A stretch of 64,000 bases of DNA from the sequence record ON286972. The stretch is one strand, 5' to 3'. The position numbers were made by a program, and so were the translations under genes. The DNA comes from Escherichia phage A4. Each line of letters starts with the position of its first letter. The stretch's first letter is position 1. The notes under the pieces were generated by a model. That model was given only the letters and a program-made list of their open reading frames with translations. It did no database searches and was not told the origin of the DNA. Positions 1,119-63,103 of the stretch are shown here, piece by piece.

Positions 1119-3017
1119 ATGGAACCGATACGTGTACTATCACTATTCAATGGGATGAGTGTTGGGTATATGGCCTTGCAAAGTGCAGGAATACCAGTTG
1201 AAAAGTACTACTCATCTGAAATTGATAAATTTGCTATAGCTGAATCCCAGGCTAACTTTCCTGATATCATCCAATTGGGTGATGTAACTAGATGGAAAGA
1301 ATGGGATATCGAATGGGACAAGATAGATCTTCTGATGGGTGGTTTTCCTTGCTTCCCAGCAGGAACCATGATCATGACAAATGAAGGTCATAAAGATATA
1401 AAAGATATAAAAATTGGTGATATGGTTCTTACACACACTGGACAATACCAAAAAGTATTGAGTATTGGTAGCAAGATTGCACCAACAAGAATCATCACAG
1501 GTCAGGGACATATACCAATTGAATGCACTGATAATCATCCATTTTATGCGAGAAAAATGAGCAAGAAGTGGGATAATGAAAAACGACAATATGTTCGTGA
1601 ATATACAGAACCTACATGGATCGATGCACATGAACTCACAGAAGAACATGCTATATGTAATGTTCGTTGTAATGTGAATTTTCAACATAACAAGAGTGAA
1701 AGCTTTTGGTATTTCATGGGTAGATTTATGGGTGATGGATGGACTTACAAAGTAAAACGACAAAATAGAAAAAATAGTTATCAATATCGTGTTTTTATTT
1801 GCTGTGCTCATGATGAATTTGATGAATTGGTTTCATGTTTTGATGGTATGAATATGAAATATAATTTTGTTAAAGAAAGAACATCTTATAAATTCTATAT
1901 TTGTTCAAAAGAACTAGTTGAATTTTGTGAACAAATGGGTAAGGGTGCTTCAAATAAACAAGTACACCCCACACTTTTCACTGAAAGTATCGCTAATCAG
2001 AAAGCATTCATTGATGGTTATTTTGACGCAGATGGTCACCATGACAAGAAAGATGATTGTTTAAAATTTACATCAACATCAAAGAATGTTATTCTTGGTA
2101 TACAACAACTAATTATGAATGTGTATGGTCGTCATTCTAACATAACATACTTTAAACCGTCTGAAACAAAAGTTATAGAAGAACGTGTTGTTAATCAGAA
2201 GCCGTATTACGTATTAACATACAAAAAAGAAAAGCACCGAAAAGATGAAGCATTCTATGATGATGGGTCATATTCATGGGTAAAAGGTGTTAAATCGAAC
2301 ACCACAACCGGAGAATGGAAAACCGTTTACAATATTGAAGTTGCAGTAGATAACACATATACGGCGAACAATATTGTAGTTCATAACTGCCAAGCGTGGT
2401 CAGTTGCTGGGAAACAAGGCGGTGTGAATGATCCTCGTGGTATGTTATTCCATACAATGGTTGATATTTACCAGCACATAAAAAGTCTCAATCCTAACTT
2501 GAAAGTTCTTTTTGAGAATGTTAAGATGAAGGAAGATTTCAAGGATTATATCAATGGCGTGTTGGAAATGACACCAATTTTGATAAATTCACAAAATTAT
2601 ACAGCACATTATCGCCAACGTTACTACTGGTATAGCTCGGATAAGTTGTTTATTCCAAAACCTCTTATTTTAGCACCAAAATTACAAGATATACTAACTG
2701 GTAATTGGTATACTGATCGTGATAAATCATATTGCATTGACGCAAACTACTTCAAGGGTGGAGATCCGAATCAGTACTTCAATAAGTCAAGAAGACAAAT
2801 CGTTTTCAAAGACCCTGATATCAACAGGAACTTCCTGATTGAGAAGGGTAAACGAAATGTGGACTATCGTCATTTAACAGTACAAGAGTGTTGCATGTTG
2901 CAAGGAATTGATGTAAACTACTTCAAAGTTAGTAGTTCAACACAAGCGTACAAAATGCTTGGTAATGGCTGGACAGCACCTGTTATAGAACATTTACTAC
3001 GTGATATATTCTTTTAA
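1119..3017 (+). CDS. DNA (cytosine-5)-methyltransferase precursor interrupted by an intein
   Basis: N-extein ends ...LLMGGFP, C-extein starts CQAWSVAG (together motif IV GGFPCQ); ENV, RHLTVQECCMLQG and GNGW motifs in C-extein; SD AAGGA upstream. Confidence 0.85.
   Translation: MEPIRVLSLFNGMSVGYMALQSAGIPVEKYYSSEIDKFAIAESQANFPDIIQLGDVTRWKEWDIEWDKIDLLMGGFPCFPAGTMIMTNEGHKDIKDIKIGDMVLTHTGQYQKVLSIGSKIAPTRIITGQGHIPIECTDNHPFYARKMSKKWDNEKRQYVREYTEPTWIDAHELTEEHAICNVRCNVNFQHNKSESFWYFMGRFMGDGWTYKVKRQNRKNSYQYRVFICCAHDEFDELVSCFDGMNMKYNFVKERTSYKFYICSKELVEFCEQMGKGASNKQVHPTLFTESIANQKAFIDGYFDADGHHDKKDDCLKFTSTSKNVILGIQQLIMNVYGRHSNITYFKPSETKVIEERVVNQKPYYVLTYKKEKHRKDEAFYDDGSYSWVKGVKSNTTTGEWKTVYNIEVAVDNTYTANNIVVHNCQAWSVAGKQGGVNDPRGMLFHTMVDIYQHIKSLNPNLKVLFENVKMKEDFKDYINGVLEMTPILINSQNYTAHYRQRYYWYSSDKLFIPKPLILAPKLQDILTGNWYTDRDKSYCIDANYFKGGDPNQYFNKSRRQIVFKDPDINRNFLIEKGKRNVDYRHLTVQECCMLQGIDVNYFKVSSSTQAYKMLGNGWTAPVIEHLLRDIFF
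1350..2387 (+). mobile_element. intein (346 aa) with LAGLIDADG homing-endonuclease domain
   Basis: starts CFPAGTMIM, TDNHPF (block B), two LAGLIDADG-like motifs (FMGRFMGDGW, FIDGYFDADGH), ends NNIVVHN followed by Cys +1. Confidence 0.8.
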
Positions 3018-3032
3018 CCATCAGAGGCACAA

Positions 3033-4417
<1,385 letters not shown>

Positions 4418-4421
<4 letters not shown>

Positions 4422-4861
4422 CAGTACTGCACCAATTAAAGAAAGTTAAACATCCGGTAGTTTATAATGATTGGCTACGCCAGAAGGAGATGGGGGACTT
4501 TTACTACCCAAAGTCTAAAGTACTGGCAACGTCAAAAACTATATACCTGAAATATAACGATGAAGATTGTTTGTGTATTCAAATGGGATTCCATCCTAAA
4601 GTTGGATTGTTTACATCAAATCAAACATTTTATAAATTTAGAATTCAAAAAGATACATTTAGTATTCACATTGAAAAGCATGACGTAGAAGATACAATAT
4701 ATCGTGTGGAAAGTGAGCCTTTGAATCTTGTTGGGATTCCGTACAATAATTTAGAAGAAATGTACTTTCAGCAGTTGACAATACAAGAAGACTTTGGTAT
4801 GATAGGACTTCAAGAGTTAGAGATGATTAAACAAATTCGTGATATCTACTTTAAGGAGTAA
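4418..4861 (+). CDS. hypothetical protein, EE-x-Y-F-Q family (EEMYFQQ)
   Basis: track ORF starts with TTG; ATG at 4418 overlaps upstream stop (ATGA). Confidence 0.55.
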
Positions 4862-4862
4862 T

Positions 4863-5006
4863 TATGCCAGTGCGTAACAGTACATCACGCTTTACACTTC
4901 AACAGAAAGCAGATCTTCTGAATATGGCTAATAAAGATTCTAATTTTTACTATCTAGTACTTGGTGGTTCAGTTGAAAAGATTGATCTACGCGAGTGTAT
5001 GAAATA
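4863..5006 (+). CDS. small hypothetical protein (about 47 aa)
   Basis: short ORF with AAGGAG SD, not in track (<60 aa); coordinates approximate. Confidence 0.4.
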
Positions 5007-5019
5007 ATAAGGGGACAAA

Positions 5020-5190
5020 ATGAGTCTGAGTGAATCCTGGAAACAGTTCAAAGAAGAGATTGGTTATCGTGGTGTATCGAGTGAACCAATCAATCGTACT
5101 GAAAGCATTAAGGCCAGTACTAACGGTACTACCTATGACCGATATGACCCACGTTACGGGTTACATGAAGAAGTCAAAAAAGAAGATTGA
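5020..5190 (+). CDS. small hypothetical protein (about 56 aa)
   Basis: short ORF with AAGGGG SD; preferred over overlapping track ORF 5030..5230; coordinates approximate. Confidence 0.35.
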   Translation: MSLSESWKQFKEEIGYRGVSSEPINRTESIKASTNGTTYDRYDPRYGLHEEVKKED

Positions 5191-5253
5191 CAATATATCG
5201 AGAGTGTGTGATAATACTCTCGTCTTTTAATTAAACAAAAAGGTAAAATAAAA

Positions 5254-5820
5254 ATGGCTGGATGTGAAAAGATTTGTGAATACAGTGATGAATATGTTGG
5301 ACATGAAATGTATCACCATAAACGCAATCATATTCAAGTACTATCTAAGCACAGAAAACATTTCCGTGGTAAAGAGGCAACTCTTTTTGTTTTTGAAAAT
5401 GGTTTGAAAGAAGTTTGGAAATCAGGTGGTCAATCCGACGCATCATTGGAATGTGTGAATCCCAATCCAACAGAAGAGAATTGGGATAATTATGAATACT
5501 TCCGCATGTTTAAACGTACACCGTGGGGTAAATCCGAATGCTATGCTGTGTTTTTTGAAAACCTCGATGAATACAAAGCTGCACTGAAACAGTTCCAGCA
5601 ACGACTGGTAATGGAATATGCATATTACCTGTACGTACCAGATGTACCAGGTAAAGTCGGTGGTATGTATCTTAACTTCTCAACTGATCTGAGTGCAGTT
5701 AAGCGTCGTTTGCGTCGTCTGGTAGGAACACGCAATCTTAAAATCAAATACATGAAAGGTGATTTCTGCGATTTCTATAATGAACAGAAATTGATTAGAA
5801 TCGGTTCAGAGGACATGTAA
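5254..5820 (+). CDS. hypothetical protein
   Basis: ATG ORF with AAAGG SD. Confidence 0.6.
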   Translation: MAGCEKICEYSDEYVGHEMYHHKRNHIQVLSKHRKHFRGKEATLFVFENGLKEVWKSGGQSDASLECVNPNPTEENWDNYEYFRMFKRTPWGKSECYAVFFENLDEYKAALKQFQQRLVMEYAYYLYVPDVPGKVGGMYLNFSTDLSAVKRRLRRLVGTRNLKIKYMKGDFCDFYNEQKLIRIGSEDM

Positions 5821-12181: not shown

Positions 12182-12671
<490 letters not shown>

Positions 12672-12688
12672 TAATTAAAGGTTAAACC

Positions 12689-13067
<379 letters not shown>

Positions 13068-13068
13068 C

Positions 13069-14083
<1,015 letters not shown>

Positions 14084-14086
14084 TTC

Positions 14087-14242
<156 letters not shown>

Positions 14243-14270
14243 CAAAACGAAATGATAATAGGAAATTAAA

Positions 14271-14456
14271 ATGCAACTTTTAATTCTTTCAATATTGTAT
14301 ATTATTATAATGGTTCCTATATCAATACGTTTAATTATACTTGAACGATTTTTATCGAAACATGGAAATAGATCTATGATATTTGTACCAATCGGGCTTA
14401 TATTGTTTGGTATATTTGCATTTATAATGGGAATTAACGCTACATTCATTTCATAG
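14271..14456 (+). CDS. small membrane protein
   Basis: ATG ORF with AGGAAA SD; two hydrophobic helices. Confidence 0.5.
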   Translation: MQLLILSILYIIIMVPISIRLIILERFLSKHGNRSMIFVPIGLILFGIFAFIMGINATFIS

Positions 14457-14465
14457 GAAACAAAT

Positions 14466-14947
<482 letters not shown>

Positions 14948-14954
14948 AAGAACG

Positions 14955-14987
<33 letters not shown>

Positions 14988-14988
14988 C

Positions 14989-15044
<56 letters not shown>

Positions 15045-15045
15045 T

Positions 15046-15231
<186 letters not shown>

Positions 15232-15295
15232 TCATTGAATGGGGTGTATTATGGTTCAAGAAGAAAACTGGGGTTTTTAACCTAACGAGGTCAAT

Positions 15296-15438
<143 letters not shown>

Positions 15439-15439
15439 A

Positions 15440-15570
<131 letters not shown>

Positions 15571-45176: not shown

Positions 45177-45416
45177 ATGAAACTATCTTTTATACGTTTA
45201 GCAGAATTCTTCGGTACTGATATAATTACTTTACAACAAATTGCAGACAATACTTCATTAAGTACACAAGAAGTACTTGACTTAGATGTGATAGAGTGTG
45301 ATAATACTTCTATCGATTATAAAGAAGGTCTTGTCGAAAAAGATAAGATTCAGGCTAAGATTAATGGTGCTGGACGGGTTCAGTACTGGAAAGGAGTTTT
45401 AAGTCATGCCAGCTAA
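45177..45416 (+). CDS. hypothetical protein
   Basis: ATG ORF with AGAGG SD. Confidence 0.55.
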   Translation: MKLSFIRLAEFFGTDIITLQQIADNTSLSTQEVLDLDVIECDNTSIDYKEGLVEKDKIQAKINGAGRVQYWKGVLSHAS

Positions 45417-47103
45417 ATTAACCCCTAAACAAGCAAAAGAAAAATTCAACAAAAAAGTATTAGAACATAACGTTCCAATTGAAGCTGATTATAGTAAGTA
45501 TGAAAATGCCAAATTAAAAAACATCCAAGTAGTTTGCAATGATGTATTAAAACACAAATCAGGCATATCACAAATATATCTTATGGATCACGCAAACCTC
45601 ACACACCCATCCAAAAAATTTGGTTGTCCTGAATGTGAAGACTGGTATAATGGTCATGCTAAAAGTTTAGATATTTTAATTGTTAGGGAAAGAATTAATT
45701 CTTGGATTAGTACTTATGGCGGGATTATTGATACGGTTAGTGGTGAAGTTGAAGTTTATAAAAATAATTCATCCAAAATACCATATATTTGTAAAAATGG
45801 AACTAAAAAAACGCTTACTATTTCTTCACTTGGCGATGAAATCGGTTGTAATTGTTCTAAATGTAAAGCTGAATTAATATCAGAAATCGAAGATAACAAT
45901 GAATATACATCCATGACTACTGTTGATGATTGTGTTACAATTTCCCATTTTAAATTTGGGGATGATGTTGCATTCTCGTGGATTTCACCATTGGAAATGA
46001 AAAAACATGGTTACTGTCTTGCCGAAAAAATGAAAGAAAAAGCATTGTCGGTTGGTAAAAATATTATTGGATATGCAATATCATCTCTTAGTGAATGGAA
46101 AAATGAAAAAACTCCTGTAATAACCGAACACGAAGGAGTATTATATCGTATTTCCAAAGCATCATATTTGATCAATAATAATATAGTACATAGACCACAT
46201 TATACAAAAAATAATTTTTTATATTATTTTTACAAATGTTCACCTAACAATCAACTTATTACACCAATCCTAATACCTGATGATATTGGTACAAAAAAGA
46301 AAATTAAAGTATGTTATAAATCATGTGGGTGTGAATATGATATATCTGTGGACGTTATAATGAACAGAAATTTAAAAACTTGTGGAAACTGTAAAAATAT
46401 AGATACTAATAAATTTATAGAACAGTGCTTGGAGTTCACTTCAAGTGGAGATTATATCTATGATAGAGTAAACTATATAAATCAAAGTACACCTGTAACT
46501 ATAGTTCATAAAATTTACGGCGAATTCAAAAGTACACCACAAAATCACTTAATACATTTAAAAAACGGTTTGAAATATGATACAGCTAACTTTAAAATAA
46601 AAAATTTAACTCAATTTAAAATTAAAGCAAATGAAGTTCATAATAACTTATATAATTATGATAAAGTTGATTATGTAAATTCTTCAACGAAAGTATTAAT
46701 AACTCATCCAGTATATGGAGACTTTTGGCAAACTCCAGCAAGTCACCTTGGTGGGTGTGGTCATCCACTTGCGGCTGGTCATTCTCAGCAATATGCATAT
46801 ATTCATAATATTTTGGATGGTGTTTTATCTGTAGCATTGAAATATGGGATTGAAAAGCAGAAAGGTAAGAGGGTGATGCAGCAAAATAAAAAATCCATGT
46901 TTCAAGTTCAATCTCTGTATACTTATTTTTTTCCATCTGTATACGAATGTAAGCAAGCTGAAAAAGAATGTAAGAAACTATTTGGTAAAGGTGTTTTAAC
47001 TAAACAAGAAATGCCAGACGGGTATACTGAAACAACTACACCAAACAACATAGATAAAATTATTGCCATCTATGAAAAATGGGGTGGGGTGAAACAAAAC
47101 TAA
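45406..47103 (+). CDS. Cys-rich protein with tandem internal repeats (candidate zinc-binding/DNA-binding protein)
   Basis: 565-aa ORF; multiple C-x2-C pairs (CPECEDW, CNCSKCKAE, CGCEYD, CGNCKN); repeated Y-D-x-V-x-Y-x-N-x-S-T-x-V-x-I-x-H-x-x-Y-G-x-F module. Confidence 0.6.
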   Translation: MPAKLTPKQAKEKFNKKVLEHNVPIEADYSKYENAKLKNIQVVCNDVLKHKSGISQIYLMDHANLTHPSKKFGCPECEDWYNGHAKSLDILIVRERINSWISTYGGIIDTVSGEVEVYKNNSSKIPYICKNGTKKTLTISSLGDEIGCNCSKCKAELISEIEDNNEYTSMTTVDDCVTISHFKFGDDVAFSWISPLEMKKHGYCLAEKMKEKALSVGKNIIGYAISSLSEWKNEKTPVITEHEGVLYRISKASYLINNNIVHRPHYTKNNFLYYFYKCSPNNQLITPILIPDDIGTKKKIKVCYKSCGCEYDISVDVIMNRNLKTCGNCKNIDTNKFIEQCLEFTSSGDYIYDRVNYINQSTPVTIVHKIYGEFKSTPQNHLIHLKNGLKYDTANFKIKNLTQFKIKANEVHNNLYNYDKVDYVNSSTKVLITHPVYGDFWQTPASHLGGCGHPLAAGHSQQYAYIHNILDGVLSVALKYGIEKQKGKRVMQQNKKSMFQVQSLYTYFFPSVYECKQAEKECKKLFGKGVLTKQEMPDGYTETTTPNNIDKIIAIYEKWGGVKQN

Positions 47104-51216: not shown

Positions 51217-53241
51217 TTATTTGTGTTTTATGTGTAAAGTGTCTAATATTGTATTGAACAATGATTTAGCAGAAATCATGATTACTTGATCAAAATCTTT
51301 AGTATAAGAAATATTAGCAGTACTGGAAGAATCTTTCACCTCATCCGGTAATGCATCAAACTCTTCTTTTTCCATAATCTTTTCAAGTTCTTCACGAGAA
51401 ATGGCTTTTACGTTTTCAATAGTCCTTAGTTGTATATTATAATCTTTATAATACGAAACTAAGTTCGTTGCGTATGAACCATCTTTAGATGCTGTTCCAG
51501 TAAAATCATAACATCCTGTATCAGTACTAACCCAATCGATTTTCCCTGAACTACCACTATATACACCTTTGTTGAACTTAATGTTAACAACATCACCAAT
51601 AGTTTTCAATATACCACCTTTACATTCATTAAATGCGTTTAATTGATAACTTGTAGTCATATAGAATTTCGGTTCTAATGTAACAGTATCACCTACAGTT
51701 GCTTTCATATCAGAAACACTTAAGAACAATTCATTAAATCCTTTTGAATAAGTCTTGGTAATTGTTGTTCCATCCCTGTTAGTTACTGTGTATTCTAAGT
51801 CCAATTCACAAATACTATTCAATGATAAGTAAGGGATATCAAATTTATCAGTACTAGCATCATAAGGACATCTTGAGGATGGTAGTATACCAGTAGGGTT
51901 TGGTACGTATTGAACTTTTGTTAACTCATACCCGCTTGCATTCGCTGGTGTAACTGTAATAGACGGTGTAGATATTCCTTTCATTCCACAGAAGTATATG
52001 TTATCTGGAAAATCATTTATTACGAAGTCAGTGACAGGAATATCATAAGTATCTTTATCAGTCCAATTAAGAACAACATTAGAACTGGTTGGATCAACAA
52101 TATGTTCACTAGAACCACAGAAATATACTGATTTGGTATTAGTAATCATTAGTAATGTTTTGGATGATGAGTTCAATTCAAGAACATCTTTCACTTCAAG
52201 ACCAGATGGTAATGTCAATGGTAACTTCGTAAATGATGTTAAATCTTGTTCATCTTTAACACCACTAGTCCCCGCCGGAAACTTACCTGAACCATAGAAA
52301 ACACCTTTATTCGTCATGAAATACATGAACGGGGTTGATGTTCCTTTGTCAAATAGTTGAATGTCATCACATGTTAAACCATCAGGTAAATCCACTTTAG
52401 ATGGAGTTCTATAAACACCAGGCTTAATACCACCTTCACCATTACTTACATCACCTAGTACATATAAATCTTTACCTAGTTTCAAGAACATTGATTTATT
52501 TTTAGCACACAAGAATGTATCATATGATTTATCATCAATTGGTAGCTTGGTATATTCGGTGTATGTAGGCATTGAATCATCAATCCACGAACTATCACCA
52601 CTAATGTAAATGTGATTGTTTCTGTCAATATAATATGAATACACATCAGTACTGTTCATATATAAAGCATTTAGTGCATTTGTTTTCACTAAGTGATTGA
52701 ACTTAAGAACTTGTTTTCCATCGTACTTATGGGAGTTGACACCAATATCACCATTTAGGCTACTACCAATTGAATATATATGACCACGTGGTAATAGAAC
52801 TTGAACACCACTTTTGGTTAAATTATATTTGGAGTGCAAGAGATCGTTATATACAACTCTAACTTTCTTAAAGATATCAGTACATTCAATCCACGATTTA
52901 GATGGTGTACCATCCATTCCTATTATTGCCGGATCACCATAATAATAAGCTTTATTTTCATATGATATTTTAAAAGATGATTTACCATCTTTTGTATTAG
53001 CACTGAAGTACACATCTTTACTATCTTTAATTGGATAAGTACTATTCTCTACAAAAGTATTATATGAGATATCGTTGTTAGCACTATTAAGAACAAAAGA
53101 AGTAGATGTACTATTGGACTTATAGACTGCTACGGAAGATGTATCACTGAAATCAATTTTAGTGAACGTATCTTTGTATGTTTCGTTTAATAATCCTACA
53201 TAAAAAACATCAGTGCCATCCATCAGTAACGAATATAGCAT
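51217..53241 (-). CDS. large beta-propeller-like protein with RCC1-type motifs (array member 10, no MLPFVRM leader)
   Basis: 674-aa ORF; motifs such as KDLYVLGDVSNGEGG; start may be the in-frame ATG at 53223. Confidence 0.6.
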   Translation of the reverse strand: MLYSLLMDGTDVFYVGLLNETYKDTFTKIDFSDTSSVAVYKSNSTSTSFVLNSANNDISYNTFVENSTYPIKDSKDVYFSANTKDGKSSFKISYENKAYYYGDPAIIGMDGTPSKSWIECTDIFKKVRVVYNDLLHSKYNLTKSGVQVLLPRGHIYSIGSSLNGDIGVNSHKYDGKQVLKFNHLVKTNALNALYMNSTDVYSYYIDRNNHIYISGDSSWIDDSMPTYTEYTKLPIDDKSYDTFLCAKNKSMFLKLGKDLYVLGDVSNGEGGIKPGVYRTPSKVDLPDGLTCDDIQLFDKGTSTPFMYFMTNKGVFYGSGKFPAGTSGVKDEQDLTSFTKLPLTLPSGLEVKDVLELNSSSKTLLMITNTKSVYFCGSSEHIVDPTSSNVVLNWTDKDTYDIPVTDFVINDFPDNIYFCGMKGISTPSITVTPANASGYELTKVQYVPNPTGILPSSRCPYDASTDKFDIPYLSLNSICELDLEYTVTNRDGTTITKTYSKGFNELFLSVSDMKATVGDTVTLEPKFYMTTSYQLNAFNECKGGILKTIGDVVNIKFNKGVYSGSSGKIDWVSTDTGCYDFTGTASKDGSYATNLVSYYKDYNIQLRTIENVKAISREELEKIMEKEEFDALPDEVKDSSSTANISYTKDFDQVIMISAKSLFNTILDTLHIKHK

Positions 53242-54154
53242 TTCTATTATTACATAAAGAAGTAATATTTTTTACTACTTTATTTGAATTATAGTTTGGT
53301 AACTTCTTTAATCCACGAACAAAATTATCACAAATAATACCAGTACCATAGAAGTTATAATCTTTATCACAGTATATAAATGCTGTATCATATGGTGAAG
53401 TACTTAAATTCTTATAGAATGGGAATGGAGTGAATGTGAATTGTAGAACCTTACGCAATTCCCCTACTGTCTCTGTTGGGAATTGTCTGTTTTTATTATT
53501 ACCAATAAAAACAACTCTATCTGTTAGGAATGTGTACATAATTCCATATGGTTTTACGTACAAATCATTATATCCCAATGATAATTTAGTTGGTGATGTT
53601 AGTGGTCCTGAGTTTATTTTGGTTTGATTAATTGAAAACTCATTAGAATTATAACCAGCCCCATATGTATTACCATTAGTACTTAAATAATATACAGTAG
53701 CTTCCCCTGCTCCAAGAAAAGTCTTTACATCAGTTGCTAACGTTTTTTGGAAAGTTGGATAAAATTTATTATATGTTCCCGTTCCCATCATCAGTTCACC
53801 ATTGCGGTTATGACCACGAGCATATAGAATACCTTTGTCTGTATCTAAGAAGAACATACCATTATATGTTTTGTAAATCTTACCTTTTGTAATATCGAAA
53901 TTGGAAAAATCATCACTAATATCAATGAATATTGTCTCAAGATTATCTTCAAGGGAGTTTAGAGATTTACCACAATACCATACTGAGTTATCTTTTTTAA
54001 CAGCAACACAACCACACGGACTGGCATCAAAATATGTTACATCGGAAAGAACCAGAGATAAGTTCTTTGTACTGCAATAGTTATCCATTGCATATAAATC
54101 GGAATCTTTAAGTATATATACGGAATTCCCAACCGCTTTAATCGAATTTATCAT
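53210..54154 (-). CDS. RCC1-like beta-propeller protein (array member 9, no MLPFVRM leader)
   Basis: track ORF starts TTG at 54244; trimmed to ATG (MINSIK) after GAGGA SD; motif GILYARGHNRNGELMMG. Confidence 0.55.
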   Translation of the reverse strand: MINSIKAVGNSVYILKDSDLYAMDNYCSTKNLSLVLSDVTYFDASPCGCVAVKKDNSVWYCGKSLNSLEDNLETIFIDISDDFSNFDITKGKIYKTYNGMFFLDTDKGILYARGHNRNGELMMGTGTYNKFYPTFQKTLATDVKTFLGAGEATVYYLSTNGNTYGAGYNSNEFSINQTKINSGPLTSPTKLSLGYNDLYVKPYGIMYTFLTDRVVFIGNNKNRQFPTETVGELRKVLQFTFTPFPFYKNLSTSPYDTAFIYCDKDYNFYGTGIICDNFVRGLKKLPNYNSNKVVKNITSLCNNRNAIFVTDGWH

Positions 54155-54373
54155 GTTTATATCCTCATAAATTGATACCAATTCTAATGTATTTACCCAC
54201 TTAAAGTACAAAAAATGATCAATTAAATGGGGAATCTTTAACAAATGAATTCATGATGTACTTGATGAATTGCCCATACCAACGGATTCCTCAGTCCCAG
54301 CATACCACATGGTATTATCGAACTTTTTATCATTGTAGTATCATAACCACACCAAACATCATCAACATTAGTA

Positions 54374-55726
54374 TTACAACAATTGTATTTCTGTGAGTGT
54401 TTGATATGTTGTACCGTTGTACACACCTCTCCAATATACCCTACCTTCAGTACTAACCACTAATAATCCATATGTTGTAAACCCAAGAGTACCACCAACA
54501 TACATAGCATCTTTAATTCGAATACCAATGTCTTCATATGTAAATGAAGCGACTGCTCCCGCTTGCCACGAAGGACTAGCGTAGTAATCACTATAAACAC
54601 CATGTGCTTTATATATTGATGTTGTTCCTGGTTCAAAAATTACAGTTCCACAGTAGTTCATTCGTATTTTAGTACTGGATGAAGTCGGTACATTTATACC
54701 TATGCCATCTTTTATCCCTGTAGTTAGGACGTTAAAACCACCCGCCACACGGTTGACGTCATTCTCACCGATTAAAAACATACCAACGTTGTAGCCCATA
54801 TAATATACACTGCTACTGCCATTCCAGAAAGAAAAACCACCACCATTACCACAGCGATATAGTTGTGAATTTGAGCAGTACATCATACCTTCGTTTGTCG
54901 CATCAAATTCATCTGCTGTTCCTATTGTAGCTACAGTAGTCCACGTTTTAATCACTTGGTTTGTACTAGCTGGTGTTTGTATACCATATCGTATATTATA
55001 TCCCTTACCAACGATTGTACCATCTTCTAATTTAGCATAAAGTACAGGTCTATTACCAACAAAATACATATTATTGTGTGACATGTCTATTGTGCATCTT
55101 AATGAAACTACTTTTTGTGTCAATTGATTATCTTTAGTAAAAGAAGTAAAGTAGTAATCCGATGTTGAGTTGTTTATTAAACCTTGTATTGACAATCCCA
55201 TATACCAGATTTCACCATTGCTGTTTAATGCTGCCAAAATACAACTATATTTTGAAGTGTATGCTGGTGATGTTGTTGAAGTTGCTGGTCCTTTATCATA
55301 TCCACCACAGAATACCATCTCCACAACTTCACCTACGTTCGAAAAATAAGAAGATACATTGATAAAACCATTTGTTATAAAAGGTGCTGTATTCATACTT
55401 GAATGTGTGAATATCCCATTTGCATATACACCACAAAAATGATATGAACCATCATTATCTTGGACTATTATTCCATTTGATAGTAACCAAAAATTGTTTA
55501 CATTTTTTCTTACTAATTCAACTCCTGCACCATTGGTTGGTGTTATACCAAAAGAAACATATTTTGTTTGACCAATACCATATAAATTTCCATTAGTTGC
55601 TAGTATTGCACCAAACCAGTTCCCACCACCATTCCTATCATGACCCATACCAATGGAGTCAAATTTCTTCACAGTAGGGACTTCAACTTTATTCCCATAC
55701 TCTAGCATTCTAACAAAAGGTAACAT
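54374..55726 (-). CDS. RCC1-like beta-propeller protein with MLPFVRMLEYGN leader (array member 8)
   Basis: SD AGGAGG then ATG MLPFVRMLEYGNKVEVP; motif GNLYGIGQTKYVSFG. Confidence 0.7.
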   Translation of the reverse strand: MLPFVRMLEYGNKVEVPTVKKFDSIGMGHDRNGGGNWFGAILATNGNLYGIGQTKYVSFGITPTNGAGVELVRKNVNNFWLLSNGIIVQDNDGSYHFCGVYANGIFTHSSMNTAPFITNGFINVSSYFSNVGEVVEMVFCGGYDKGPATSTTSPAYTSKYSCILAALNSNGEIWYMGLSIQGLINNSTSDYYFTSFTKDNQLTQKVVSLRCTIDMSHNNMYFVGNRPVLYAKLEDGTIVGKGYNIRYGIQTPASTNQVIKTWTTVATIGTADEFDATNEGMMYCSNSQLYRCGNGGGFSFWNGSSSVYYMGYNVGMFLIGENDVNRVAGGFNVLTTGIKDGIGINVPTSSSTKIRMNYCGTVIFEPGTTSIYKAHGVYSDYYASPSWQAGAVASFTYEDIGIRIKDAMYVGGTLGFTTYGLLVVSTEGRVYWRGVYNGTTYQTLTEIQLL

Positions 55727-55801
55727 ATATCCTCCTTTATTCATTATATTATATTTAATCAAAAAAGAAAAGCCAGTACAGAGTACTGGCATTTAAAATA
55801 A
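55727..55801 (-). repeat. conserved intergenic cassette (terminator hairpin GCCAGTAC...GTACTGGC + T-run, AT-rich TATAAT-containing promoter-like segment, AGGAGG SD)
   Basis: minus-strand reading TTTAAATGCCAGTACTCTGTACTGGCTTTTCTTTTTTGATTAAATATAATATAATGAATAAAGGAGGATAT-ATG; recurs 6 times. Confidence 0.65.
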
Positions 55802-56977
55802 TCAAAATGTAGGAAGTTTGAATTCTCTCATAACAGATGAACTGCTTGCAGATACATTATCTGGTGATTTCCCTGCGTAGTATAATTTATTATCAATGAA
55901 CATATACAATGTTGCATCATTTCCTGCTACAAGTGATTCACTTTTCTTAAATTTAACACCACTAGGTAAAATTGCTTCAACAAATGAACCTGATTCTCTT
56001 GTAGTATTATTTGCCAATTGACCATTGTTATTATAACCAGTACTATAAATTTTACCTGAACTATAATATACGAGTCCACGAGTACTAGTGTTTTCTATTC
56101 GAATGAATTCACTATCATCTGGGACTGTAGTTGATAGAACTGGGTTTAACTTATAAGCAGATGATACATTATTATTACCCAATTGACCATAACCTTGAAA
56201 GCCTAGTGTATACATAGGACATGATTCTGGTGTGCCTTTTGTTATAATACCAATATAATTCACACTACAAAAAATGTCTATTGCTTCTGTAATAGGTGTA
56301 CCCTTATATTGAACCCAAGGGAATACATACGATTGTTGCTTACCATTTCCCAAAGTACCGGAAGTTGTTGTCCCAGTACGCCACATTGTATCATCAAGTT
56401 TAATAATCCAGTTAGCTGTCGTTATCGATGAACAGAATTTTTTAACATTATCCACTAAAAATGTAAATTGATTATAATATGATGCAGTGTTTATACCAAA
56501 CTTAGCACCAGTATTATCACCTAACAAATATAAACTATTATCTGTACCTAAAATCAAAGCATAATCATAACCCACGTATATATCTTTAATTCTTGAAATT
56601 CCAAATTGTGTAAAATAGCTTGTACATTCTGTGAATGTTGTTATATTATTGGTTGTATTATTACCTAGCCATTTATCTAAACCACTATAAAAGAATCTAT
56701 CATCATTTGTGCGTATTAGACAAAAAGCGTTCATTGTACTGCACCAAAAATCTTTAACATTGCTATATATTTTTGTCCATTCAGTTACTGCATTAGTATG
56801 ACCTAAACCAAAAATTCCACCATTCTGAAGACCAATAGCCCATATTGAACCATTTTTATCAAGCATCATTGTACATGTATGTGAATAACCACCCGATGGT
56901 GTAACTAATTTAACAAAATTGGGAATATATGGTAAAACTTTATTTCCATAATCCAACATTCTAACAAAAGGTAACAT
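55802..56977 (-). CDS. RCC1-like beta-propeller protein with MLPFVRMLDYGN leader (array member 7)
   Basis: SD AGGAGG + ATG; motifs GSIWAIGLQNGGIFGLG, GKIYSTGYNNNGQLANNT. Confidence 0.7.
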   Translation of the reverse strand: MLPFVRMLDYGNKVLPYIPNFVKLVTPSGGYSHTCTMMLDKNGSIWAIGLQNGGIFGLGHTNAVTEWTKIYSNVKDFWCSTMNAFCLIRTNDDRFFYSGLDKWLGNNTTNNITTFTECTSYFTQFGISRIKDIYVGYDYALILGTDNSLYLLGDNTGAKFGINTASYYNQFTFLVDNVKKFCSSITTANWIIKLDDTMWRTGTTTSGTLGNGKQQSYVFPWVQYKGTPITEAIDIFCSVNYIGIITKGTPESCPMYTLGFQGYGQLGNNNVSSAYKLNPVLSTTVPDDSEFIRIENTSTRGLVYYSSGKIYSTGYNNNGQLANNTTRESGSFVEAILPSGVKFKKSESLVAGNDATLYMFIDNKLYYAGKSPDNVSASSSSVMREFKLPTF

Positions 56978-57048
56978 AATTCCTCCTTTATTCATTATAC
57001 TATATTTAATCAAAAAAGAAATGCCAGCATCAAGTACTGGCATTATTG
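56978..57048 (-). repeat. conserved intergenic terminator/promoter/SD cassette
   Basis: hairpin ATGCCAG...CTGGCAT + T-run + ATATAGTATAATGAATAAAGGAGG. Confidence 0.6.
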
Positions 57049-58239
57049 TTATAGTTGTCTTGGTGTATCAAGTACATATCTATTTGTACTAGGACCACCA
57101 TCATCATACGTTCCGGTTGAATATATATTTTTCATATCAGCAGTTAGAAAAGTACGATACGAACCGCGATATATTTTTATTTTATCATACATAGAATATG
57201 ATATTTCTGCTGGCATTGGACATATAGTAAATCTACCAATAGTAACATTAGAACCAACACCCAACGAACCAGCATAACTACTCGCATTTAAACCAGTTGC
57301 ATATACACCAGTACTCGTAACTAGTATACTAGATTGTGTTGGGTATCCTGTATGAATTGAATACAAAGTTCCAGTTGGTAATGTCGTACTATTGCTCCCT
57401 AATACAGCAAGTGCCGAACTGGTTGTGGTATTGTTACCCCATGCACCATTACTCGCTAAACCACCAACTAGAAACTGACGTGCACCAGTACTTGGATTCT
57501 CAACCAAAGCACTGACTGCACCACTTGAGCATCCAGTGTATTGTAACGTTTTTGTGTATGTTGTACTTGGTTTATATAAAGTATATTCATTAAATGGTGT
57601 CCATGTGGTACTGGTACTTATACCTGACGTACCACCACCAATATATAAATTATTTTGTGTATCAAAAAACATTACACAGTTATTTGTTGACTGTATTTGT
57701 GCAATATCAACATTAGGCGTGACAGCTTTTACAAATGATCCATCTGTTATTTGTTGAGTACTACCAGTACCATCAGCGAATTGTCTAGCCCCACTCCAAC
57801 CAGTACTCCATATTGTATTATTATCCATTAATACCGTAAACCACGTAGTACCTCCATACATCTGTTTAATTGAAGTACTTGAACTTTGCGTGTACAAATT
57901 TTCAATATATTGGTTATAACTTAAAAACGTAGTAGTACTAGTTGGTAAACCAATATGATCACCATATCCACAATAAAAATAATTTGAGTCATTATCTTGT
58001 ACTAACAAAGTTCCTTGTGACACCCAGAAATCTTTAACATTTTCTCTAATTAAGGTCCATGACTTTACTGCATTACTATTTCCTATACCAAACTTCCCAA
58101 AACTATTATTTCCACGTGCGTATAGTTGACCATCCGTATAAAGAACGACAACATCTAAATCAGTTGGTGTTATTTTCTTAATTTGAATAGGGACTGGTGT
58201 TATATTCCCATAATCAAACATTCTAACAAAAGGTAACAT
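57049..58239 (-). CDS. RCC1-like beta-propeller protein with MLPFVRMFDYGN leader (array member 6)
   Basis: SD GGAGGG + ATG; motif GQLYARGNNSFGKFGIG. Confidence 0.7.
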   Translation of the reverse strand: MLPFVRMFDYGNITPVPIQIKKITPTDLDVVVLYTDGQLYARGNNSFGKFGIGNSNAVKSWTLIRENVKDFWVSQGTLLVQDNDSNYFYCGYGDHIGLPTSTTTFLSYNQYIENLYTQSSSTSIKQMYGGTTWFTVLMDNNTIWSTGWSGARQFADGTGSTQQITDGSFVKAVTPNVDIAQIQSTNNCVMFFDTQNNLYIGGGTSGISTSTTWTPFNEYTLYKPSTTYTKTLQYTGCSSGAVSALVENPSTGARQFLVGGLASNGAWGNNTTTSSALAVLGSNSTTLPTGTLYSIHTGYPTQSSILVTSTGVYATGLNASSYAGSLGVGSNVTIGRFTICPMPAEISYSMYDKIKIYRGSYRTFLTADMKNIYSTGTYDDGGPSTNRYVLDTPRQL

Positions 58240-58310
58240 ATTTCCCTCCTTTATTCATTATACTATATTTAATCAAAAAAGAAAAGCCAGTATCAAGTAC
58301 TGGCCTATAT
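58240..58310 (-). repeat. conserved intergenic terminator/promoter/SD cassette
   Basis: same cassette family (GCCAGTACTTGATACTGGC hairpin). Confidence 0.6.
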
Positions 58311-59480
58311 TTAAACTGGTGAATCTAATACAAATTCTAAACTACTAATGCCACCATATGTGACATTTGTCCCTGTGCTATATACAAAATTACCATCAGT
58401 TATATAAGTTCGGTTATACCCACCTGCCATCTGCGACTTACTATAATCAAACCCATCAGGAACGATTGCTTTGGTATATACTAATGCATTATTAGATGTA
58501 CCAATACCTAACATACCAGCTCCTGAAGATTTATTGTAGCCGCAACAATATATACCATCTGTTGTAGCAATAACTTGGTTATAATATGAAGTAATGTTAG
58601 CAATGCTTACTACATCACCGGGTGGCATTAGTGAAGCAGTTTGAACCTCAAATGCTCTATAATCACTGAGAGAACCATTTATCCCATCTGCTTGTGCACC
58701 AAATATTCTCGAACCGCCATTTGCGATGATGGTTTTACCAGTGGGATCAGTACCAATTGCCATTGCCATTGAAGTACTATTCTCCATATAGTACTTGATA
58801 TTAATTGTATTTCTTAAGCTGGTAGGAGCACCATAATATATAGTATATAACTTACCTCCTGAACTTGTAACTGCATTTACTCTTCCTGTATAAAATAGCC
58901 ATCCTTGGTTTGTAACATAACCGTGCATTAAATTACTTGCAAACAATTTAACAGGTAATTGATCTGCTGCGGTCGGAACAGTACTTTTGACGAATTTTCT
59001 AGCAACATTGTTAGTTGTTGTCCCATCACCCAACTGACCATCACCCCCTGCTCCAGTACTCCATATTGTTTGGTCTGTTAGTAATACACTTGTAGTCTGA
59101 TAACTAACTGCTATATCTAATATTGGTAATGTTAACGTATCGAATGTTGGCATAGCAGAAGTCCATATTGATACTGCTGCCCCTGGCATACCAACAGTTG
59201 TTGAACTTCCACTGTACCATATTTCATCATTGCTTTTCTTAATAACTATCGACGTGGCTCCCATCCAAAAATCTTGAACATCAGAAGTGCTAAAAGTCCA
59301 TGTAGTAACAATATTTTTGTGACCTAAACCCAAAAGACCATTTGTATTCTCACCACGCACATATAAATCACCACTGTTTGTTAAAACAGCAACATTATAG
59401 TTGTTAGCTAGTATTTTTTTAATATTTGGTTTAGCAGGTGCAATATTCCCATACTCTAACATTCTTACAAAAGGTAACAT
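58311..59480 (-). CDS. RCC1-like beta-propeller protein with MLPFVRMLEYGN leader (array member 5)
   Basis: track ORF extends upstream into cassette; trimmed to SD-proximal ATG; motif GDLYVRGENTNGLLGLG. Confidence 0.7.
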   Translation of the reverse strand: MLPFVRMLEYGNIAPAKPNIKKILANNYNVAVLTNSGDLYVRGENTNGLLGLGHKNIVTTWTFSTSDVQDFWMGATSIVIKKSNDEIWYSGSSTTVGMPGAAVSIWTSAMPTFDTLTLPILDIAVSYQTTSVLLTDQTIWSTGAGGDGQLGDGTTTNNVARKFVKSTVPTAADQLPVKLFASNLMHGYVTNQGWLFYTGRVNAVTSSGGKLYTIYYGAPTSLRNTINIKYYMENSTSMAMAIGTDPTGKTIIANGGSRIFGAQADGINGSLSDYRAFEVQTASLMPPGDVVSIANITSYYNQVIATTDGIYCCGYNKSSGAGMLGIGTSNNALVYTKAIVPDGFDYSKSQMAGGYNRTYITDGNFVYSTGTNVTYGGISSLEFVLDSPV

Positions 59481-59550
59481 AATTCCTCCTTTATTCATTA
59501 TATTATATTTAATCCAAATAAGAAAGCCAGTATCAAGTACTGGCATTGTG
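59481..59550 (-). repeat. conserved intergenic terminator/promoter/SD cassette
   Basis: same cassette family. Confidence 0.6.
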
Positions 59551-60660
59551 TTATTTCGGTAAATCAATTTTAGTAAAGACTGCAACATCCTCGCTTGCAC
59601 CGGGAATGGCGTAATACGTTCCAGTACTATATACATCTCCATTTTTGGTTAATATTGAAGTCAAACCATCACTAAAAAGAACATCCCTAATCTCACTAAC
59701 TTCAACGGGTAATTGTAAATTTGTAGCACTATATATAGCACCAGTTTGAGAATTGTTTAATCCCAAACCACGGTTCGCCCCAACACCCTTCTGATATGTA
59801 CTGGTAATTACCATTTGTGTAGCAGTATTTAATGCAGGTGAATTCGTCATAAACAACGGAGAACTATTAGGCAAAGTACTTACAGGAACTGCACGGAATG
59901 TAGTCGTACCTGAACTAAGAAAGTTTGGAGTTTGACCACATACGAAATATGATGTACCATTATAGTAATTAAATGCATTACCACCAATCGCTGCATCGAT
60001 TACACCAGAACTACGTAATCCCCAAGTGTTAATTTGTGTTTGGTCCCCTGTACCATGCTGCCCACTGCTATTCCATCCAGAACTATATAGCTTATTATCT
60101 AATGTAATATACATACTATCATTTGCATTAGTCATTACTTTACGCACGTTAGTAGCACATTGAGTTAATGTGTAAATCGATGATGAGCCAATACCTAAAG
60201 AACCACGATATCCATTATCTCCTGCACCATAGAGTACTGAACTAGTGCTAAGTACAAATATTAAACCATTTGTACATACAATATTAGCAATTTCACTCAC
60301 TGGTATAGCATTGGTAAACCAATTAGTCCTTTCAACTAATATAGTACTGTAAGAAGTAGTTGTAGAAGATGAGAACCAGTACGTTTCACCCGATGTCCAT
60401 ATCGTATTATCATTTTTAATAATAACAAGTGTACGACCACCCACGAAAAAATTAGAAACATCTGAACTTACTAATATCCATGAAGATACCGTGTTGTTAT
60501 TACCATTTCCAGATTCACCACCTTGATTTCTACCTATGTAATATAAATCATGTGAATCAGTCAATAAGAATTGACCCTGTGTAGAAGCACCAACTTTAAT
60601 TATATTTTTAGGACCGGGTACAATATTCCCGTACACTAACATTCTTCCAAAAGGTAACAT
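59551..60660 (-). CDS. RCC1-like beta-propeller protein with MLPFGRMLVYGN leader (array member 4)
   Basis: SD AGGAGG + ATG; motifs HDLYYIGRNQGGESGNG, NKLYSSGWNSSGQHGTG. Confidence 0.7.
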   Translation of the reverse strand: MLPFGRMLVYGNIVPGPKNIIKVGASTQGQFLLTDSHDLYYIGRNQGGESGNGNNNTVSSWILVSSDVSNFFVGGRTLVIIKNDNTIWTSGETYWFSSSTTTSYSTILVERTNWFTNAIPVSEIANIVCTNGLIFVLSTSSVLYGAGDNGYRGSLGIGSSSIYTLTQCATNVRKVMTNANDSMYITLDNKLYSSGWNSSGQHGTGDQTQINTWGLRSSGVIDAAIGGNAFNYYNGTSYFVCGQTPNFLSSGTTTFRAVPVSTLPNSSPLFMTNSPALNTATQMVITSTYQKGVGANRGLGLNNSQTGAIYSATNLQLPVEVSEIRDVLFSDGLTSILTKNGDVYSTGTYYAIPGASEDVAVFTKIDLPK

Positions 60661-60733
60661 AATTCCTCCTTTATTCATTATACTATATTTAATACAAAAA
60701 AGAAAAGCCAGTACTCTGTACTGGCATATTACA
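60661..60733 (-). repeat. conserved intergenic terminator/promoter/SD cassette
   Basis: same cassette family (GCCAGTACAGAGTACTGGC hairpin). Confidence 0.6.
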
Positions 60734-61876
60734 TTATTTCCACGGTAGAAGTGAATCAGGAACTCTGGTTGGTACTCTAACGGCTGGAACATTTCCAAGT
60801 TCAGGTAAACCACTCATATACAAATTGTTATTTTCATCAATTATCATTGAATAGAAATTATCAATTACGAAGCCTGAAATTCGTCTTCCTTCTAATGCAT
60901 CAAGAACCATTTCGGTGAAAGTTAGTATATTTTCGGATGTTTGATTAACACCACATGCACCATAGGTATTTCGACCACAAGTATATAACTTATTATTATT
61001 TTTAACAACACATCCATTCCCTTCGTTGTTGGATAAACCACCCACCAACTCTATTTCACCTTGGAATGATAAATTGGGAATTAATGTACTCATTGGTACT
61101 GCTGATACTGTACCTACACCAGCTTGACCATATGCATTTGGTGAAGCAACCTTCACTGAACCATCATTAAGAAATATATATGAAGTACGGTATGTATTTA
61201 CAGCTTGTATAGCATTGGTGATAGTATTGTCTTTTGTAAAACTTAATATATTTGATGTTTTTGTACTACCAGGAGCAACAGTATTTCCTGCATACCAATA
61301 GGAGCCATCATCAAGTACTAACCCAGTACTGAGCAAAGAACAGCCATAACTTTTAACATTTTCTATAGTGCTGTATCTGAACGATGTGACATTAGCTGTT
61401 GACGCGTTACCAAATACACCACCTTCGCCAGAACCACAGTAGAACCATTTTCCATTTTTTAAAAATACACGCAAATTCTGCCCAACAGCAATACCATCAA
61501 TATCATCAGCACTGACACCAAAATCAGTGAAGTACTGGGTTACATCAATCCAAACCCCATTTGTATTTGTTCCGATTTGTGGCATTACTATACTAGCACC
61601 TGTGAACCAAATAGTTCCATCATTCTTAATGGCAATGGAACCAAGAACACCACCCCAGTAACGTTCAATATTATTATTCACACGGGTCCATACGGTGGAT
61701 GATTGTAATGAACCATTACCACCTTGTCCAAATGAAGATGAACCATACCAGTACAAGTCACCATTAACATGCAAATAAAAACGAGTATTATAATTTGCTT
61801 GTAATCTATTTTTAAATAGAGGTTTTGGTTCCGGTGCAATATTCCCGTACTCTAACATTCTAACAAAAGGTAACAT
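60734..61876 (-). CDS. RCC1-like beta-propeller protein with MLPFVRMLEYGN leader (array member 3; near-duplicate of member 2)
   Basis: 380 aa; N-terminus MLPFVRMLEYGNIAPEPKP and C-terminus ...VPTRVPDSLLPWK shared with 61949..63091. Confidence 0.75.
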   Translation of the reverse strand: MLPFVRMLEYGNIAPEPKPLFKNRLQANYNTRFYLHVNGDLYWYGSSSFGQGGNGSLQSSTVWTRVNNNIERYWGGVLGSIAIKNDGTIWFTGASIVMPQIGTNTNGVWIDVTQYFTDFGVSADDIDGIAVGQNLRVFLKNGKWFYCGSGEGGVFGNASTANVTSFRYSTIENVKSYGCSLLSTGLVLDDGSYWYAGNTVAPGSTKTSNILSFTKDNTITNAIQAVNTYRTSYIFLNDGSVKVASPNAYGQAGVGTVSAVPMSTLIPNLSFQGEIELVGGLSNNEGNGCVVKNNNKLYTCGRNTYGACGVNQTSENILTFTEMVLDALEGRRISGFVIDNFYSMIIDENNNLYMSGLPELGNVPAVRVPTRVPDSLLPWK

Positions 61877-61948
61877 AATTTCCTCCTTTATTCATTATAC
61901 TATATTTAATACAAATAAGAAATGCCAGTACTCTGTACTGGCATTATA
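61877..61948 (-). repeat. conserved intergenic terminator/promoter/SD cassette
   Basis: same cassette family. Confidence 0.6.
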
Positions 61949-63091: not shown

Positions 63092-63103
63092 AATTCCTCC
63101 ATA

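Follow-up and report, generated by a model that had tools for sequence, protein, structure and literature searches.

In Escherichia phage A4, the gene for a cytosine-5 (C5) DNA methyltransferase is interrupted in motif IV, between Pro77 and the catalytic Cys, by what is very probably a bona fide class-1 intein with an active-looking, double-motif LAGLIDADG homing endonuclease. The gene lies in a 64,000-nucleotide stretch of the phage genome (record ON286972), the whole of which was analysed and is referred to here as the window. A first-pass annotation, made from the DNA letters alone, had read the 632-residue open reading frame (ORF) as a C5 methyltransferase whose motif IV is split by a 346-residue intein with a LAGLIDADG endonuclease, with the catalytic Cys as the +1 residue. 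The sequence, structural, and comparative evidence bears out that reading. The boundaries it gave for the insert are exact to the base, and the motifs it had named (CFPAGTMIM, TDNHPF, FMGRFMGDGW, FIDGYFDADGH, and NNIVVHN) are all found in the positions assigned to them. We infer splicing, DNA cleavage, and the target sequence of the endonuclease from comparisons of sequences and models. The identical 632-residue protein is already public under the names "DNA cytosine methyltransferase" or "hypothetical protein", and carries no intein feature there.

The insert and its host methyltransferase

The intein comprises residues 78–423 of the ORF. It begins with CFPAGTMIM and ends with NNIVVHN, and the next residue is Cys424 of CQAWSVAG. 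Motif IV is therefore split as GGFP↓C…VVHN↓CQAWS, where the arrows mark the junctions. The junction codons are TTT CCT↓TGC TTC on the 5' side and CAT AAC↓TGC CAA on the 3' side, and the reading frame is unbroken through both exteins. Residues 1–77 end in DLLMGGFP, and the sequence from residue 424 onward is CQAWSVAGKQGG.

A comparison with intein-less alleles had been proposed in the first-pass annotation, and most relatives do carry the methyltransferase without the insert, in 121Q, PBECO4, and Turkey5 as a 286-residue form. Intein-less alleles of 858 bp, encoding 285–288 residues and reading GGFPCQAWS, were found by tblastn in 121Q, PBECO4, Turkey5, EJP2, Hallingskeid, and GAP32; their motif IV region is GGFPCQAWSVAG. 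The 286-residue length is equal to the 77 + 209 residues of the two exteins, and in the protein alignment with the 121Q allele, the gap falls exactly between Pro77 and Cys424. The predicted target site at the motif IV codons exists in two synonymous variants, TGGTCAGTTGCAGG and TGGAGCGTAGCAGG. The best record in the phage collection that was searched shows 78–88% identity over the first 6 kb of the window, and complete E. coli genomes yielded no match. The host phage is a PBECO4/121Q-like (Asteriusvirus-type) jumbo coliphage.

The Pfam DNA_methylase profile matches the unspliced precursor in pieces, with E = 4.9e-29, and residues 4–79 of the ORF align with profile positions 1–72. The NCBIfam model TIGR00675 (dcm) gives 96.4 bits with the precursor, just below its cutoff of 100.65. 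When residues 78–423 were deleted in silico, the resulting 286-residue protein gave one continuous DNA_methylase match, with E = 1.6e-35. The hallmarks of a C5 methyltransferase are all retained, namely motif I, which binds S-adenosylmethionine, the PC of motif IV, the ENV of motif VI, and motif X. The C-extein contains the remainder of motif IV, ENV, the QRY/RxR region, the target-recognition region, and GNGW, which is motif X. In a comparison with solved structures, the spliced extein aligned from end to end with the catalytic domains of DNMT3B and DNMT3A (E = 2.4e-22). In this alignment, GGFPCQAWS pairs with GGSPCNDLS of DNMT3B, with PC on the catalytic PC, and the splice junction is bridged without a break. 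The match to M.HhaI and M.HaeIII is weaker (2.2e-18 for M.HhaI, mostly in the N-terminal half). The closest solved structures to the 286-residue spliced methyltransferase are eukaryotic, the catalytic domains of DNMT3B and DNMT3A. The host protein is a small DNMT3/HhaI-like C5 DNA methyltransferase. Because the PC of the spliced protein aligns with the catalytic PC of DNMT3B/DNMT3A and M.HhaI/M.HaeIII, Cys424 is predicted to double as the +1 nucleophile in splicing and the catalytic cysteine of the methyltransferase.

That the insert has the Hint and LAGLIDADG architecture of a class-1 intein is practically certain. Pfam Hint_2 matches with 36.7 bits against a cutoff of 28.4 (E = 6.9e-9), and LAGLIDADG_3 with 33.8 bits against a cutoff of 22.5 (E = 4e-8, ORF residues 294–360); Hom_end_hint and Hom_end give scores below threshold. 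The sequence matches among solved structures are the gp41-1 intein, in the N-terminal Hint part, PI-PkoII, the V-ATPase intein, and I-DmoI. An AlphaFold2 model of the intein, built on an alignment of 29 sequences, has a predicted local distance difference test score (pLDDT) of 93.1 and a predicted template-modelling score (pTM) of 0.90. When this model was compared with the PDB by Foldseek, the best match was TliVMA (7qsu), with E = 3.8e-18 and a template-modelling (TM) score of 0.71, followed by PI-SceI, PI-PfuI, and PI-TkoII, and then by I-DmoI on the central domain. TliVMA (7qsu/7qss), PI-SceI (1vde, 1lws), PI-PfuI (1dq3), and PI-TkoII (2cw7) have the same architecture as the intein in the window, with Foldseek E values from 4e-18 to 8e-10 and TM scores up to 0.71 at only 10–17% identity. 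Their exteins, however, are VMA ATPase, ribonucleotide reductase, or DNA polymerase rather than a C5 methyltransferase, and the present intein is smaller, at 346 residues, and, judged by the alignment lengths, is without the extra DNA-recognition region of PI-SceI. The endonuclease domain has the two-motif, pseudo-dimeric LAGLIDADG fold (alpha-beta-beta-alpha-beta-beta-alpha) of I-DmoI. The target-normalised TM score is 0.63–0.70 by Foldseek, the identity over the endonuclease core is 22–24%, and the sequence-level E value is 4e-3. I-DmoI is intron-encoded and free-standing, whereas the endonuclease in the window sits in a Hint domain. A search of all six-frame ORFs of the window with an intein hidden Markov model revealed no further copy.

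Residue conservation was counted in two sets, the alignment of 29 sequences mentioned above and the best 149 of 755 clusters. These clusters, formed at 50% identity, were obtained at E ≤ 1e-30 in an exhaustive search of a representative library of 1.84 billion proteins, and the junctions were taken from the same best 149. In block B, Thr60 is present in 28/29 and 147/149 of the relatives, and His63 in 29/29 and 148/149. At the C-terminal end, where VVHN occupies intein residues 343–346, the terminal Asn346 is present in 29/29 and 146/149, and His345 in 22/29 and 143/149. The +1 Cys is invariant in the smaller set and is found in 146 of the 149 clusters. The two LAGLIDADG motifs are also well preserved. 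In the first (GRFMGDGW, intein residues 124–131), Asp129 is found in 26/29 and 143/149 and Gly130 in 29/29 and 149/149, and in the second (DGYFDADGH, residues 222–230), Asp228 is found in 28/29 and 146/149 and Gly229 in 28/29 and 147/149. Both acidic residues occur together in 141 of the 149. We assign the insert to the class-1 inteins with a monomeric, double-motif LAGLIDADG endonuclease on the strength of these catalytic residues, the sequence matches, the structure, and the exclusion of an intron described below.

The proposed reaction sequence is as follows. The 632-residue precursor would be translated with its catalytic loop split, and could not methylate. Cys1 of the intein (Cys78) would undergo the N–S acyl shift, and Cys424, at +1, would attack the thioester to give a branched intermediate. 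Cyclisation of Asn423 would then free the 346-residue intein, and the S–N shift would remake the peptide bond between Pro77 and Cys424, giving a 286-residue methyltransferase with GGFPCQAWS, laid out as in the intein-less alleles. The freed intein would act as a site-specific endonuclease that, during co-infection, cuts at the motif IV codons of alleles without an intein. Repair off the intein-carrying allele would copy the intein with short flanking tracts, which is homing. The features are collected in Table 1.

Table 1. Predicted features of the intein-containing methyltransferase gene, in window coordinates
Feature	Position	Strand	Basis or remark
Precursor ORF, C5 DNA methyltransferase split by the intein	1119..3017	+	632 residues plus stop, no internal stops
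N-extein, 77 residues, motif I (LFNGMSVG) to the first half of motif IV (GGFP)	1119..1349	+	Pfam DNA_methylase
5' tract, end of N-extein and intein residues 1–42, codons 40–119	1236..1475	+	90–97% nucleotide-identical to UE-S1
Intein, 346 residues, class 1 with embedded LAGLIDADG homing endonuclease	1350..2387	+	Pfam, AlphaFold2, Foldseek, gap against intein-less alleles
Cys1 of the intein (Cys78), block A, predicted nucleophile of the N–S acyl shift	1350..1352	+	29/29; 146/149
Block B, TDNHPF, intein residues 60–65, with Thr60 and His63 of TxxH	1527..1544	+	Motif conserved in relatives
Homing endonuclease domain, about intein residues 112–295	1683..2234	+	Boundaries from secondary structure of the AlphaFold2 model
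LAGLIDADG motif 1, FMGRFMGDG, putative catalytic Asp129	1713..1739	+	Conserved in relatives
LAGLIDADG motif 2, IDGYFDADG, putative catalytic Asp228	2010..2036	+	Pfam LAGLIDADG_3 and conservation
3' tract, blocks F/G (last 24 intein residues) and start of C-extein, codons 400–459	2316..2495	+	88–100% nucleotide-identical to UE-S1
Blocks F and G (VYNIEVAVDNTYTANNIVVHN), with Asn at F:4, His345, and terminal Asn346	2325..2387	+	Conservation
Cys+1 (Cys424), first C-extein residue, motif IV catalytic Cys	2388..2390	+	Invariant in aligned relatives
C-extein, 209 residues, rest of motif IV to motif X	2388..3014	+	Pfam and PHROG DNA methyltransferase matches

Probable mobility and recombination of the intein

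Intein DNA was found in only four phage records (TH47, JNE01, UE-S1, and ph0011) among about 45 related ones. The inteins of JNE01 and TH47 (type A) and those of UE-S1 and ph0011 (type B) share the gene, the site, and the genus-level phage group with the intein in the window, and are 77% and 53% identical to it, respectively. Away from the insertion, the JNE01 extein is 98–99% identical to that of intein-less Turkey5. The two exteins differ at 36 nucleotides, and 29 of these differences are in codons 76–77 and 426–457, giving a divergent tract that spans about 6 bp on the 5' side and about 100 bp on the 3' side of the insertion point. Within this tract, JNE01 is like the other intein carriers, with 91% identity to UE-S1 and TH47. 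Such a pattern is what co-conversion should leave behind, with double-strand-break repair having copied an intein and its flanks into a Turkey5-like allele.

Unlike the type A and type B alleles, the intein in the window is chimeric, and no identical phage record is present in the collection. Both of its ends, with the adjoining extein, closely resemble UE-S1 (Table 1), while the endonuclease core at 1716–1955 (codons 200–279) shows 85–90% sliding-window identity to JNE01/TH47 and 43–64% to UE-S1. Judged by these identities, the intein is a recombinant of two variants, with type-B-like splicing ends and flanks and a type-A-like endonuclease core. This suggests that endonuclease cores have been exchanged between two intein variants that occupy one site. 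The G+C content at third codon positions (GC3) is 0.23 in the intein (0.21 in the endonuclease core) and 0.34–0.35 in both exteins, and the overall G+C content of the window is 0.347. The contrast in GC3 fits either codon selection that is weaker in the intein or an evolutionary history apart from that of the exteins.

The ratio of nonsynonymous to synonymous substitution rates (dN/dS) was estimated by the method of Nei and Gojobori, between the window and JNE01 for the regions of the intein and among intein-carrying alleles for the exteins. It is 0.09 for the endonuclease region and 0.10 for the N-terminal Hint region, where dS is high and near saturation, and 0.02–0.11 for the exteins. By these estimates, the methyltransferase and the endonuclease are both under purifying selection.

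Is the endonuclease still active? We think it probable that it is, or was until recently. The less likely explanation, which we would not expect to be correct, is that the intein is competent in splicing and its endonuclease no longer cuts. The intein would then be inherited vertically, en route to a mini-intein, and its mobility would be ordinary phage recombination. Mini-inteins and forms with a degraded endonuclease are indeed found at the same site (P0003, 264 residues; P0038, 267 residues; P0039 and P0040, about 150 residues). Furthermore, homologous recombination alone, without cleavage, could explain the mosaic structure of the intein, and its GC3, below that of the exteins, could mean relaxed codon selection. 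However, both LAGLIDADG acidic residues are intact, and the low dN/dS over the endonuclease domain, even with dS near saturation, argues for a function that has been kept. The divergent tract between JNE01 and Turkey5 also adjoins the insertion point and runs on through some 100 bp of the C-extein, which is what double-strand-break repair predicts. One observation weighs against homing in the lineage of the window itself, which is that no close intein-less relative was found for its own extein. For this reason, homing into this lineage would follow from the JNE01/Turkey5 pair together with the mosaicism of the intein.

Predicted splicing with proline at the −1 position

We consider it very likely, from the conserved residues and the selection on the exteins, that the intein splices. 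Several features weigh against this. The residue at block F:4 is Asn328, not Asp, and Asn is found there in 27/29 and 132/149 of the relatives. Canonical inteins usually have Asp at block F:4, and this residue is common rather than defining. Asn at F:4 is thus a variant feature and no bar to membership of class 1. Two intein profiles score below their cutoffs, Pfam Intein_splicing with 24.6 bits against 35.8, and TIGR01443, for the intein C-terminal region, with 13.8 bits against 15.6. Finally, position −1 is occupied by the Pro of motif IV, and 140 of the 149 best clusters share this Pro(−1). Pro at −1 is reported to be prohibitive for many inteins, natural and engineered ones having earlier failed with it (PMC6486613).

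These same features, the unfavourable Pro(−1), the atypical Asn F:4, and the two low profile scores, could be taken to mean that the insert is a domain that does not splice, so that the gene would be a methyltransferase pseudogene or would encode a permanent methyltransferase–nuclease fusion. We regard this as very improbable. The splice-site residues are all conserved in hundreds of clusters of relatives, the exteins of the intein carriers are under strong purifying selection, with dN/dS as given above, and the methyltransferase motifs are all kept. The insert parts the Pro from the Cys of the catalytic PC, so that no catalysis is possible unless the insert is removed. Purifying selection on the methyltransferase would likewise make no sense if the intein were not removed.

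A group I or group II intron with an in-frame LAGLIDADG ORF, removed at the level of RNA, has a negligible probability; introns also encode LAGLIDADG endonucleases and phage genes often have group I introns, but here the endonuclease sits inside a Hint domain with Cys1, TxxH, and HN/C+1, and the frame is continuous with both exteins. A search of the whole window with Rfam at gathering thresholds gave only six tRNAs and no intron family, and the intron was rejected.

Occupancy of the motif IV site

The first-pass annotation had not been aware of methyltransferases as intein hosts and had thought that the insertion site may be new. Neither suggestion holds. DNMT-1/2, which are N6_N4 DNA methylases, are among the intein hosts of mycobacteriophages (Kelley et al. 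2016, PMC5050341), and an actinophage survey of 2025 includes DNA methylases of both the N-6/N-4 and C-5 (IPR001525) types among the hosts that had been reported before it (10.1101/2025.01.02.630785). As for the site, related inteins occupy it in hundreds of other methyltransferases. Of the 149 best clusters, 131 (88%) have the entire motif IV context, P↓C...N↓C-x-x-[FWLIVMY]-S, and annotated phages share it as well. A word-indexed protein search gave P↓C at the N-junction in 37/39 and N↓C at the C-junction in 40/40, and other junction contexts also occur among the closest relatives. When the intein alone was used in tblastn, full-length relatives with 24–31% identity were found in methyltransferase genes of many unrelated phages. 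The element is an unannotated new addition to a known, populous intein group, and represents neither a new site nor a new class of host.

Both phage and bacterial C5 methyltransferases have an intein at this motif IV site, namely Dmt of the P1-like phage RCS47, Lactobacillus phage Nyseid gp072, Propionibacterium phage B22 gp50, Mannheimia phage 587AP2, Erwinia phage Y3 gp050, EBPR siphovirus 2 gp44, and Paenibacillus cisolokensis P0032. These inteins have full-length homology to the intein in the window (24–33% identity), the identical insertion point, and the same class-1 residues, and most also bear a LAGLIDADG endonuclease. In 587AP2, Nyseid, RCS47, Y3, B22, and EBPR siphovirus 2, the junctions read xxP↓CF...HN↓C(Q/K)xFSxAG. 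They differ from the present case in belonging to other methyltransferase lineages and other hosts, and their records have no intein annotation. Mini-inteins and endonuclease-degraded forms occupy the site too, so every stage of the intein life cycle is represented there. By contrast, the intein of Pacc40 gp60, a mycobacteriophage DNMT, is a homologous class-1 LAGLIDADG intein over its full length (26% identity) in a phage methyltransferase, but its extein is of the N6_N4 type and its junction is HV↓C...KN↓CPLQFD, hence another insertion site.

Several of these records deserve comment. The phage-plasmid RCS47 (dmt, locus 2270-5557), the P1 record OP279344, and phage Ro157c2YLVW each have an unannotated 341-residue intein in the C5 domain of Dmt. 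It lies at the motif IV Cys, with the junctions GGTP↓CFTAGH...VVHN↓CQAFSIAG. In Mannheimia phage 587AP2 (locus 1264-3100), the intein-bearing C5 methyltransferase is annotated as several overlapping coding sequences, each called "DNA methyltransferase". Its frame meets a stop shortly after CQS, past the intein; the allele may be frameshifted or decaying, or the stop may come from a sequencing error. The metagenomic protein P0003 (551 residues) has a third intein variant in an Asteriusvirus-like extein, MKPIKVLSLFDGMSG...GGFP↓CFPGGT...MVVHN↓CQAWSVAGKQGG; its intein is only 264 residues long, and the endonuclease region looks degraded. PHROGs contains a family of methyltransferase plus intein, phrog_36001, which is tagged "unknown function". 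Several mycobacteriophage DNA methylases, Pacc40 gp60 among them, are named "anaerobic ribonucleoside reductase large subunit" in RefSeq and "DNA methylase" in GenBank. PHROG 26446 (NrdD) matches the intein part of the window protein, residues 78–435, so the reductase name looks like an annotation artefact that arose through intein homology.

Neither the motif IV site nor the inteins of Asteriusvirus and P1 Dmt were found to be explicitly described in the searchable literature, where methylases are listed as intein hosts in generic terms. With so many sequences in the data and no explicit description in that literature, the motif IV site is common yet under-described.

Other features of the window were also recorded. 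A 565-residue ORF at 45406-47103 (+) matches PHROG 681, "endonuclease", with E = 7e-48, and also an HNH endonuclease family; from these matches, the ORF may encode a further nuclease of a mobile or selfish kind. The minus strand of 51217-64000 has a tandem array of at least eight ORFs of 344–674 residues, plus one cut by the end of the window. All seven of the ORFs scanned match PHROG 4219, "regulator of chromosome condensation" (RCC1-like repeats), and the array is a large paralogous gene array. The six tRNA genes, for Ser-TGA, Gly-TCC, Ser-GCT, Met-CAT, Asn-GTT, and Thr-TGT, are at 12491-15560 (+).

What do these findings mean for this group of inteins? The current understanding of intein function is unchanged by them. 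The locus is an unusually clean natural record of homing, with its co-conversion tract of about 100 bp in JNE01 compared with Turkey5, and it also documents the exchange of endonuclease cores between intein variants that compete for one site. It draws attention to the catalytic Cys of C5 methyltransferases as an insertion site that is densely occupied and has barely been described. For annotation, the window protein and its relatives have been deposited without an intein feature, and intein homology appears to lie behind wrong RefSeq names. A more tentative idea, which we would at present rather doubt than accept, is that this is a huge and essentially uncharacterised intein family, mostly at C5 motif IV, whose native splicing is adapted to Pro(−1) and which has Asn at F:4. 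Since purifying selection on the exteins implies splicing, such an adaptation to Pro(−1) may be presumed. If splicing is indeed efficient, these inteins would offer splicing chemistry that naturally tolerates Pro(−1), which is possibly useful in protein engineering. Furthermore, the adjacency of Cys1 and the catalytic Cys+1 might allow splicing to serve as a redox- or timing-dependent switch on the methylation of phage DNA.

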